Assembly (NCBI RefSeq): GCF_006345805.1
Contig: NW_021828695.1
Coordinates: 1 to 8,019 of the forward strand
Direction of reading: 5' to 3'
Length of the DNA stretch: 8,019 bases
Source: Octopus sinensis
Lineage: Eukaryota
The stretch's first letter is position 1; every line of letters begins with the position of its first letter. The position numbers and the translations under genes are program-made. Under the pieces are notes generated by a model. That model was given only the letters and a program-made list of their open reading frames with translations. It was not told the origin of the DNA and made no database searches. This document shows positions 2,438 through 7,825 of the stretch, one piece after another.

Positions 2438-2632
2438 GGAGGGGAGATACGTTGAATGCACTCGAAAAAACTATTTCAGACTGACTTTATCTACCGTATT
2501 TTTAAATCATTTTCACTAGAATATTTTTTAAATATGACACAAAAAAAAATTGTGTTGGAATTCACATTTTTGTTTTAGTTTCAGCTCAGAGCTGTGGCCA
2601 TACTGAGGCACCGTTATTTTACTACACTGTTA

Positions 2633-4055
2633 TTATTGAGAGCCTCCTCTAATATGTGGCACTTGGTGAAGAAAAGAGTTTAATGTCGCTTCCCTCGTTT
2701 GCACCTCTTGCCGCGAAGTAGGTTCATCTGTGACTCCCGACCAGAAGAAGTCCAGTTTTGATTTGAAAACACCTACATCTACTTTGTGTAGGTCCTTCAG
2801 ACTCTTTGGGAGAATATTAAAAAGTTGTGGGCCCCTAAAATCCAGGCTGTTGTAGTAACTGGTCCTGGAGCGCGCACTGTGCAGTGACGATCCGTCCTGG
2901 TATTTGTGTAGCTTTCAATGCCAAAATTTGGCACAATTCCTTCTAGGATCTGCCAGATGTATATTACTGCATACTTCTCCCGCCTTTGCTCCAGGGAGTA
3001 GAGTCTTAACTCTTTCAGCCTTTTCCAGTTGCTGAGACGTTGCAATGAGACGATCTTCTTTGTCAAGCTTCGCTGGATTGCTTCAAGGTCCACTGTTAAT
3101 TTTATACTGTTGGGTGACCATAGCTGGGAGCAGTAAACGAATGTCCTCCAGAGGACCATCATGGGTTCCTTCTCTCTGGTACTGAACGTTCTCAGTATCA
3201 AGCCAGCCAGTCGTCTGCACTTTGTTGCCATCCTGGTAGTGTGCACTTGGAAAGAGGTATCATCACTCATGTCAATACCCAGGTCCTGTACTGATTTAGG
3301 GTCTGGGATTGTAATCCCCTGTGAGCCAGTGTACCCTGTAAGTTTTACGTTCAGTTTTGGACGCTGGTAGCGCAGAGCTTGGAATTTTTCAGCATTAAAC
3401 TGCATATTATTGTCCTCAGCCCATCTGTAAAGTGAGCCCAACTCCTGCTGCAGATGTACAACATCGCTGGGGTTCTGTATTTTCTGCGAGGCTTTATTAT
3501 CGTCTGCGTAACCAGTAAGGGTGGCTATCCGGGCAGCTGAGAGCATATCTGAGAGGGTCACCTGTGCTTGTTTGCAGTGAGCTATTCCTGAGAGCATGGG
3601 GCCTTCTGGCCATTTGATATTGAGGAAGTTGAAATCACCCATAAGAAATACGCTCACGTTGTGTTCCAGTTACATGAGGATTTCTTTAATTCTTGTGAGG
3701 CAATCTTCAAACTTGCCTATGTGGTTTGGAGCATCTGGTGAGCGATATGTATTGCATATTACTATATTGTATTGTCTTATGTATACAATTAGAATGTCAA
3801 ATACTGAATTTGAGTATGACAATAAGACCTAGGGTGTGAGGTCTTCACGGATGTATACAGCAATCACGGCTCCTTTCCCTTCCGTCTGTTCGCAGTATGG
3901 TATATTTTGGTATGTGTACTTCTGCATCCTCTATATCAGGGCTTAGATGAGTTTCTACGAGTGTTATGCATAGGGCTTGATTGTATGCAGCAAGATCTCT
4001 CAGGAAAAAAACTTGCTTTCGTTGTTGTGATGAAACAGGGCCCCCAATATTTAGT
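2633..4055 (-). pseudogene. LINE ORF2 remnant (endonuclease-reverse transcriptase) with stops, frameshifts and internal deletion
   Basis: Hand translation: FLRDLAAYNQALCITLVETHLSPDIEDAEVHIPKYTILRTD / VYIREDLTP*...YRSPD...M*LEHNVSVFLMGDFN. Continues as the 286-aa ORF 3657-2797, then after a frameshift NSLDFRGPQLFNILPKSLKDL...FKSKLD...VTDEP...GGSQ* (stop 2635-2633). Confidence 0.88.
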
Positions 4056-4099
4056 AAAAAATATTGGCGTGACTACTGCAGGCGTTAGGGGAGGCCATC

Positions 4100-4970
4100 C
4101 CGTGTCTGTTGATTGTAGTGATCTTGCGCAGTGGTGAGTAAGGTTCCTTGACTGTGCTTCATGTAGCCAGGTCAGCTGCTGCATAATCTTTTGCGCCATG
4201 CACAAAAAAGACTCTTGCACATAACATCTGAAGAGCGCACTGCATTTGTATATTTTTTTCTTTGGAGACGATTGGTGCCTTTCCTCGGGGAAGTATTTCT
4301 TCTTAAGGCCCCTGTAATTTTGGCGGGGTCTCATGTAAAATTTGCAGGTCCTTGACTTCACTCCAGCTTTCTTCTCTCCTCTAGGGTTTCGGATTCCATT
4401 GGAGCTTTCTGTTTTCTTTTTTTTTTTCGTGGTTTGGGGTTTCGATTTTAGTTATTTCATCTTTTCCTTTTCCTTTTTCTCCTCTTCCTTCCTTACATTT
4501 GTACTCGTGTTCTTTCCTTCCTTTTCTGATGGCAGCATTTTCATTCCTCTGGTTTTCCAATGGGGTGAGGACTATATTCCTTTGTAGGACCATTGGCACA
4601 GAGGGACTTCTGGTTGTTGCATCCTCAGCTTCCCTATCCCTATCAGCCTGGCTGTTCACAGGGGTGGGGGGATCCATTCTTTTGAGAGACCACTGAATCA
4701 AAGAGACTTCTGATTTTTGCTTCGTTTTCCCAATCCTTATCAGCCTCACCACAGTAGTTTTTCATGATGACATCAAGAGTGTCAATGTGTGATCTAATAA
4801 GGGCATAGGATCGTATGAATTCATTTTTCTTCCGCTCTCTCTGCTCAATGATTCTACAGAAGCCATTGTACAGAAGCAGTGATGATGTTGTTTGATGGAT
4901 CGCCGCTAATAATCGTCCATGCTCGCAACAGAAGATTCAATTCCTTGCTCTCCCACTTTGGTACCATCTA
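4100..4970 (-). pseudogene. Probable LINE ORF1 remnant (fragmented, Lys/Glu-rich)
   Basis: Protein-like broken frames directly upstream of the APE domain on the same strand (ORFs 4752-4381 and 4361-3936; GFCRIIEQRERKKNEFIRSYALIRSHIDTLDVIMKNYC). Assigned by position; no diagnostic domain recognised. Confidence 0.5.
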
Positions 4971-5786: not shown

Positions 5787-6877
5787 TACAAACAATACAT
5801 CTTAACTTAAATTTTCATCCGATATTATCAATGATAAAACAAAATAAACAAAATAAATAGGATACTTATTCTCAAGCGGTAAAATTCCAATCCTTGTTCT
5901 TGTACGAAGAAGTTTTATTTCAAAGAAAAAATCGATTACTCTTGGCACACGGCTGCTAATGAAAGTACGATTTATCACCACGTACTTTCTTCGAAGATAA
6001 CTCTGGCTTGCGTCATTTTTTTTTTTTACCAAAATATTATAGTAAATCATTATGAAATAACAAGTACTGGGTTGTTTTTTTTTTATTGAGTTTCAGTAGA
6101 TTTTTTGTCGATTTAGGGAATCCCTTTTGGTTTTTTCCGAAGCACGAAAAGCACGTCTTTCCATAACGAAACCGGAAGTATATACTTGAAAATAATTTTA
6201 AAAAACATTAAAATATTGTCTGTTTAAAGAAAGCTAAACTATAAATACTTACTGTACAAACAGCTTACAGTTTTGAAATCACATTCACTTAAAAATATTT
6301 CTAAATGATTAAAATATTGTATTTAATAAAAGCGAAAATAGAAACTGTAAAAAAAAATCGCTTTTTTTTTCCTTCTTTTCGTTGTCAAATCACTGTCTAA
6401 TAAAAAGTTATGAGTTTCTTTCCTTTCAGGATGAAGATTATTTTCGGAACATTTTCCCATTATGCACCGTTTTGGATATTTATATCCTGAAAATCTCTAA
6501 TATCTTGAAAATAACTTTACCGATTTACGCGAAACTTGTTTCATTCGAGAAGTTTTAACATTTCAGGGTAAACTTAATTCATGGTATTTTCCCATTATGT
6601 GCCAGTTTCGCTGAGTAACATTACAAGCAAGCAAGAAAGATTGAAACTGACTTTTAATGTATTATGAATATGTATATATAATTTATATTTTTATGGAACA
6701 TAACTGTTATGTTCGGTCTATTATTTTTTAACTTCTTGTCCGTTTGAATAGAAAAGTTACACCAAATCTTACATTTCTCCGACTACAGTACGCTTTCGAC
6801 TCGATGATTGTATCACGTGTTTCCAGCTTCAAATCCCCATTTCTGACACAGTTTCCAGTGTAAAACTTTTACAACCA

Positions 6878-6996
6878 TATTACGGCCATATCACGTTGAA
6901 AGCACCCGTTCTCGTCTGATCACCGAAGTTAAGCAACGTCGAGCCTAGTCGGTACTTAGATGGGTGACCGCTTGGGAAACCTAGGTGCAGTAAGCA
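6878..6996 (+). rRNA. 5S rRNA: 5S rRNA-derived sequence (retroposed copy, probably not a functional rRNA gene)
   Basis: TTACGGCCATATCACGTTGAAAGCACCCGTTCTCGTCTGATCACCGAAGTTAAGCAACGTCGAGCC...GATGGGTGACCGCTTGGGAAACCTAGGTGCAGTAAGCA is typical metazoan 5S. The first two bases (GC, expected from helix I pairing with the 3' GTAAGC) are replaced, helix I has a mismatch, and there is no oligo-T terminator. Confidence 0.93.
6927..6975 (+). promoter_or_regulatory. Pol III type 1 internal control region (box A to box C)
   Basis: Box A AGTTAAGCAACGTCG at 6927-6941 (5S +50 to +64); box C AGATGGGTGACCGCTTGG at 6958-6975, with A where G is usual at +81. Confidence 0.75.
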
Positions 6997-7825
6997 TAGC
7001 ACATTGTTAATGGCGGTGCCCCAGCATGGCCACAGCTCATGAGCTGAAACTAGAATCAATCAATCGATCAATCAAAACCTGGTCGTGCTTTCATTTCTTA
7101 TACCTTTCCCGTGCCAACTTGAAGCATTATGTCACAATGTGTGCCACTGTCTTGTTCCAAGTTCCACAGGCTCTACATTTTTCTGACACCTTCTTTCCAT
7201 ATATATTTTCCCTCAAGCTGTTTGTTTGTTTTGTTTTTTGTTGCTTGATCTTGGGCTGCTACAATTAGGCACACTGTTTCTTTTTTTAACTCTATAACAA
7301 CAGTTTTTTTTTAATCAACACAATTAGGTTGCGTTGATGTTAATTATCTCGCTTGAGATAAGCAATTAACGCACGACAATGGTTGGGTGTATATTTACAA
7401 CAACCGTTTTAACCAGTTTACGGCGATGATTCATTCGGTTGCCTGGCGCCATGGGCTCTTAGGAGCATAGTTCGATTTGTTTTTGCTCCGCCTCTGTTCT
7501 GTTTTTGTTTTTTCCAAGGATTTCCTTTTTTTTCCTGAAGAGAAAGACACAATATGGTCTCATTATTCAATCGGATTTTGGTAATTTGTGCCTTTCGAAA
7601 CACGTGTAGAATGAAATAAAACGATTTCTGTTCAATCTGCGTTCAGCTCCATTTCTTCAATTCACCAATAATGTTTTAATTTCAATTATCCGCACCAACG
7701 CACGGTTGCAACGCCAGATGGTTGTACCTCCAACCGTGCTGTTACTGCTGTGATTTTTGCTACTAAGGTATCGGTTAAACTTTTGATTAATCTACTACAA
7801 GATTATTCATCTTTCTATTTCACAT

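Follow-up and report, generated by a model that had tools for sequence, protein, structure and literature searches.

Results

A chimeric 5S rRNA retrocopy in a dead LINE

An 8,019-nucleotide stretch of Octopus sinensis DNA (contig NW_021828695.1; hereafter, the window) carries a 199-bp insert composed of three extra bases, nucleotides 3–120 of 5S rRNA, a 10-nt 5S gene trailer, the 3′ stem-loop of a CR1-type long interspersed nuclear element (LINE), and an (ATCA)n tract, all on the forward strand. The insert is probably a one-off chimeric retrocopy, in which the precursor of a variant 5S RNA and the last 68 nt of the LINE RNA were fused, likely through template jumping by reverse transcriptase (RT), and then inserted as a single unit, with a 4-bp duplication, into a dead LINE of the restriction-like endonuclease (RLE) type.

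The insert is flanked by the word AACC at 6873–6876 and 7076–7079, the left and right copies of the target-site duplication on the forward strand, exactly where a preliminary description of this DNA had placed them. The match is not extendable. In a lenient search, a match of at least 4 bp was reached in 73% of mismatched flank pairs, so the repeat is within chance and is, by itself, weak evidence. The proof comes from the contiguity of the host. On the minus strand, the segment at 6700–6876 is the endonuclease side of a fossil RLE-type LINE (downstream of its HW motif), 86–89% identical to at least 39 other copies, and the segment at 7080–7289 is the zinc-knuckle side of the same fossil, with 68–85% identity to its paralogues across stretches of at most 210 nt. 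We compared 24 host paralogues out of 39 non-self matches listed for the left flank. In 23 of them, the left flank runs directly into right-flank sequence through a single AACC-like word (31 nt inspected by eye; one of the 23 has a 1-nt insertion at the site); the sole exception, L035, has a deletion there. The gap projected by BLAST was 0 in 16 paralogues, 1 in one, and negative in four, which have downstream deletions, while three others gave no long right-hand match. None of the 24 carries an insert at the corresponding site. Both the duplication and an arrival in one step are thus confirmed: the 5S head and the tail were inserted as one unit, after the RLE element, as had been proposed, and the two halves of the host are contiguous and belong to one family.

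Removal of the insert had also been said to restore the host reading frame exactly. At the site itself this holds, since the flanks translate on the minus strand as ...KHD and VVKVLHWKLC..., giving H-D-Q-V-V-K-V-L-H-W across it. The restoration is only local, because stop codons and frameshifts lie on both sides, and elsewhere the host frame is dead. Translations of host paralogues contain CxxC...H....C, followed by RHDQVVKVLHW and then by a PD..D motif, an order that we take to be the layout of RLE LINEs. By its CCHC knuckle, RHD..HW, and PD..D endonuclease motifs, the host is classified as an RLE-type LINE, with R4/Dong as the candidate clade. Searches yielded no clade name for it: there were 0 matches in the PDB, and a search with a longer protein returned one homologue without a name. 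Dong-R4 elements are abundant in an Octopus annotation (PMC13282606; for this and all other papers cited here, statements refer to the sections consulted).

Assembled contigs from two sequencing runs bridge the 3′ junction of the insert. The contig from run X2 (organism B) spans 7037–7162 with one difference, and a contig from run X1 (organism A, which may be the source of the window itself) does likewise; the insertion is therefore present in two samples with different labels. No orthologous empty allele was found among the contigs of six runs (X1, X2, X3, X5, X6, and X9), in which contig joints that skip the insert carry the letters of paralogues.

The head derives from a minor 5S gene type

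The 5S part of the insert (6880–6997) matches Rfam family RF00001 at 6878–6996 with 94.6 bits and has two private changes, at nt 30 and 74. The 3′ trailer of a 5S precursor follows at 6998–7007 and extends to where the terminator T-run begins. The main 5S array of the genome is located on C4, near 131.8–132.0 Mb. The window head differs from an array gene at 8 positions, and the trailer at 7 of 10 (a 3/10 match). A different 5S locus was reached through the upstream DNA of L098, one of 52 exact matches to a 5S-end search pattern, which has no partner and carries the upstream element of array genes (present in 34 of 36 array genes and also in most variant genes), and then a T-run. This minor locus lies on C5 and on contigs C9721 and C9513. 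Its variant genes carry the diagnostic bases of the window head, the trailer, and the T-run; two of them, both with these bases, differ from the head at 4 and 5 positions, and the window trailer matches three variant genes at 9 of 10 positions each. The joint match of head and trailer indicates that the head is a copy of an unprocessed transcript of this minor variant gene type. Dispersed heads of the array type keep trailers of the kinds found after array genes.

By inspection, the array 5S genes (on G000:C4, L063 among them) have a C17–A61 mismatch in helix II. The variant genes are paired at this site, and two of them have G7–A112 in helix I; two changes specific to the C5 gene retain pairing as G–U. 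In the group L088, L093, and L098, two chimeras carry the same change at 5S nt 57 as the C5 source gene in its present form, and one of the two has the trailer change of that gene as well. This sharing possibly represents a time series of the mutations of the C5 gene.

The three bases at 6877–6879 (ATA) differ both from the host and from the bases that precede nt 3 in source genes. Of 28 full-length 5S heads, 11 have an additional G in front of them, compared with an 18.5% background (p = 0.008), which makes filler from the joining of the 5′ end likely. For this copy, the earlier view of ATA as a non-templated addition is thus plausible. Descent of ATA from a transcript started upstream, through a deletion, was judged less likely than filler. 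No tRNA was found in the window with ARAGORN.

The tail comes from a young CR1-type LINE

Downstream of the trailer, the segment at 7008–7054 is the final part of a CR1-type LINE 3′ untranslated region; the tail is predicted to fold into two hairpins (z −2.8). The (ATCA)n tract at 7055–7075 is that of the donor LINE subfamily. Positions 7008–7074 differ at only 2 of 67 positions from the 3′ ends of LINE copies L227 and L228, and the tail constitutes the last 68 bases of the element. The donor LINE is young, because the 39 other matches listed are 98–99% alike and because the frame is open across all 608 codons examined at 5 of 25 loci (L229, L238, L244, L251, and L252); the family may still be active. 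The element has an RT domain (RVT_1), its full-length homologues carry PF14529 (apurinic/apyrimidinic endonuclease) and PF00078, and its closest named relatives, at 59–62%, are from Argonauta hians. It thus combines an endonuclease and RT open reading frame (ORF) with a 3′ stem-loop and a microsatellite end; from its motifs, we presume it to be CR1-type rather than L2 or Jockey.

Elsewhere in the window, a degraded member of this CR1-type family occupies 2573–4800 on the minus strand; it ends in a related 3′ tail of its own (2573–2613), 90% identical to that of the insert. At 770–816, also on the minus strand, lies a short tail without a head, like those at the ends of common short interspersed nuclear elements (SINEs), and a 186-bp tandem duplication at 812–1174 adjoins it.

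Dispersed 5S copies are independent fusions

A 24-base pattern at the 5S end matched the 52 sites exactly and 577 sites with up to two mismatches, array genes included. From 100 listed ends we took 96, omitting four array sites; removal of a tandem duplicate and a gene-like locus left 94. Short CR1-type tails of several subfamilies follow 48 of these ends, and two run into the interior of a CR1-type LINE. At another 31 the partner is a member of one of four SINE families, joined at its 5′ start; RTE pieces follow 10 ends, and two are tentatively fused to a very short SINE end. The remaining one is an unfused source gene. In all, 91 of the 94 ends are fused in sense to several unrelated LINE and SINE partners, a given head having many partners, and no antisense link between 5S and a partner was seen among the 94. 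The heads begin within nt 1–4 in 57 cases, and the trailers are shortened to variable lengths. No Rfam tRNA match was obtained for the SINE heads in six loci; box-like motifs seen by eye lead us to presume that these SINE partners are of tRNA origin.

The same data bear on an insertion in two steps, a 5S pseudogene first and a LINE tail later, into its T-rich end. LINE and SINE tails are indeed very abundant and often lie in A/T-rich DNA. The duplication, however, encloses both parts of the unit in a contiguous host, every clustered partner abuts the trailer in sense orientation, and the sole unfused copy among the 94 is a gene, leaving no pool of solo pseudogenes as targets. Two serial insertions are thus largely refuted, and we regard them as most improbable.

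A true 5S-headed SINE (SINE3), amplified from a fused master copy, would be another source of such units. At least 39 other loci match head and tail together at 89–96%. The head matches real genes across the internal control region, whose boxes are placed by Xenopus numbering, and no T4 run occurs before 7178, so read-through transcription would be possible. Like SINE3, the unit has a 5S-derived head with this control region and a 3′ tail common with its partner LINE. The uniform structure of a family with a fused master is absent, however: 17 copies with the head and tail of the window have 16 different junctions, and the copies at the one shared junction have different microsatellites. In a set of 50 window-type heads, two private changes are common to no more than a single pair, whose partners differ, so that no private mutations are held in common together with a common partner. 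Junctions, partners, and microsatellite tails vary freely, an unfused source gene exists, and head-less tails far outnumber fused ones, a published sign of independent chimeras (PMC4494074). SINE3 amplification is therefore very unlikely. By the criteria of that paper, the varied junctions and partners mark the dispersed 5S copies as independent chimeras, likely made singly, and not a SINE family. The one-unit interpretation of the window insert can accordingly be extended: rather than being copied from a SINE master, the unit is a one-off fusion of two separate RNAs, a pre-5S transcript and the 3′ end of a LINE. It has the features of a small-RNA/LINE chimeric retrocopy, with the small RNA 5′ of the retroelement 3′ part on the same strand, both parts inserted in a single event, and independent formation alongside a partner that mostly occurs alone.

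Five more chimeras (L108, L146, L150, L172, and L195), including a fusion of 5S with a whole SINE, are single units in cleanly contiguous hosts. They were found, with the window, among 11 loci with empty-like paralogues; L153 was an artefact, L111 and L169 were ambiguous, and L020 and L173 lie inside (TA)n. The preliminary description had suggested compiling target duplications across other copies. For this purpose 44 chimeras were examined, 20 of which were dropped for microsatellite flanks; in the 24 with non-repetitive flanks, a duplication of at least 5 bp was found in 17, compared with 39% of controls.

No credible 5S head was found in twenty arbitrarily chosen 10-kb stretches (200 kb) that hold 25 matches to the tail family.

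U6 fusions share the partners and the junction zone

Among the best Rfam matches to dispersed U6, 18 of 22 copies are fused to partners used by 5S, and four are gene-like. In all 29 fusions to the tail type of the window (25 with 5S and four with U6), the LINE match begins 0–5 bases upstream of the stem. The junction zone is thus fixed, and U6 behaves in the same way as 5S. Of seven degenerate dispersed U1 copies, four (L326, L328, L330, and L331) lie in or adjoin (ATT)n tracts, without CR1-type or SINE partners; these copies may have been moved by another machine.

Discussion

Mechanism of joining

The following pathway would account for the chimeras. The LINE protein would bind the 3′ stem-loop of its own RNA and prime at a nick. 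The template would stop at the base of the stem, at the edge of a protected footprint or at a stall. The enzyme would then add untemplated bases and jump to the U-rich 3′ end of an RNA polymerase III (pol III) transcript, which would be copied almost to its 5′ end, and the 5′ junction would be closed last, with a few filler bases. 5S RNA, which has no such stem-loop, would likely reach the genome mainly as a passenger of this kind. The R2 RT is known to jump between templates using untemplated bases (PMC8857657).

Alternatively, an RtcB-type activity, as for human U6/L1, could have ligated the two RNAs before a single pass of copying. Fusion of U6 at the same points as 5S, the sharp junction zone, as expected for a cleavage site, and the trailers cut to variable lengths would all agree with ligation, and the mechanism has been demonstrated in human cells (PMC6789731). 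Yet ligation needs a 5′-OH on the partner, and 31 of the 94 partners begin at the SINE's own 5′ end, where the RNA is expected to bear a triphosphate. In addition, 5S normally has no terminal cyclic phosphate (PMC6789731). At L319 (500–720), a U6 copy is followed by three successive starts of one SINE, as if by serial template jumps. Because of these SINE starts, the 5S terminus, and L319, we favour template jumping as the probable joining step and consider ligation unlikely.

Several points weigh against our interpretation. Genomic DNA cannot separate jumping from ligation, and cleavage followed by ligation would also fit the variably shortened trailers and the narrow junction zone, in which all 29 joins lie no more than 5 nt from the stem. 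Each present variant gene differs from the window head at 2–8 further positions, and the exact donor allele is therefore not among them. The duplication signal over the 24 chimeras is a weak excess, with a mean of 5.1 bp against 4.4 bp (p = 0.02), and those duplications that are verified through the host measure between 0 and ~8 bp. The sample comprised 96 of the 577 pattern sites and was skewed toward window-type heads. The best 29 other tail matches (27 head-less, two at the end of a LINE body, none with a 5S head) were obtained with a query that began at the junction, which overstates the fixedness of the truncation point and favours truncated copies.

Relation to known chimeras

Doucet et al. 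(2015) described chimeric pseudogenes of U6 with L2 and Mon-1 in platypus and with L2, RTE, and SINEs in Anolis (PMC4476161); the partners in platypus and lizard are L2, RTE, and their SINEs, duplications in platypus measure 1–9 bp, and the single CR1 case was inconclusive there. As in those animals, a small pol III RNA is followed in the octopus fusions by a short 3′ end from a LINE or SINE, the LINEs are stringent, duplications are short, and nearly all copies of the small RNA are chimeric (PMC4476161). They differ in that the host is an invertebrate, the LINE is CR1-type, and 5S is used as well as U6; octopus 5S heads are mostly near full length, whereas platypus U6 is mostly 5′-truncated, and the octopus chimeras keep precursor trailers that identify the source and have their junctions concentrated at the base of the stem (PMC4476161). 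Human 5S/L1 and U6/L1 chimeras are likewise unique events without self-propagation (PMC11838501, PMC6789731), and human U6/L1 copies are, as in octopus, full length and in sense (PMC6789731). Human 5S/L1 chimeras, however, are often antisense and truncated, while octopus 5S is in sense, 3′-complete, and followed by its trailer (PMC11838501); human L1 junctions are variable, while octopus CR1-type junctions fall within about 5 nt (PMC11838501, PMC6789731).

The combination of a 5S head and a LINE-derived 3′ tail recalls SINE3 of vertebrates and insects, and CR1-clade partners are also those of vertebrate SINE3; unlike SINE3, the octopus fusions have no uniform structure or master (PMC7245038, PMC10886601). 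They look like the raw material from which SINE3 could arise. In Octopus vulgaris, repeat annotation contains a single, automatically defined 5S SINE family along with U families, and the main text is silent on chimeras (PMC13282606). We found no report of 5S chimeras in cephalopods, though supplements, Repbase, and subscription papers (e.g., the 1994 octopus SINE paper) could hold one. The fusions thus belong to the known class of small-RNA/LINE chimeras, to which they add an invertebrate host, a CR1-type LINE, and 5S precursors.

Implications

A single insertion of this kind is ordinary, and the interest lies in the genome-wide pattern behind it. The chimera mechanism now takes in an invertebrate as well as a CR1-type LINE, and repeat pipelines could misfile chimeric copies as a 5S SINE family. 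The gain of small-RNA heads by SINEs is usually inferred from finished families. Here, dozens of young independent fusions occur in one genome alongside the genes that they came from and a LINE that has ORFs, and the joining step is therefore directly testable. We tentatively propose that octopod CR1-type LINE particles retain only a protected 3′ stem-loop of ~60 nt as template and may routinely switch from it to any pol III transcript that ends in U. The 5S pseudogenes scattered through the genome might then be a barcoded record of the 5S genes transcribed in the germline. Such a record, if this speculative view is right, would expose a minor variant 5S class, with a helix I mismatch and its own trailer, that is strongly over-captured for its few copies. 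The variant could conceivably be a germline-type or poorly matured 5S, and the fusions could be SINE3 caught before birth.
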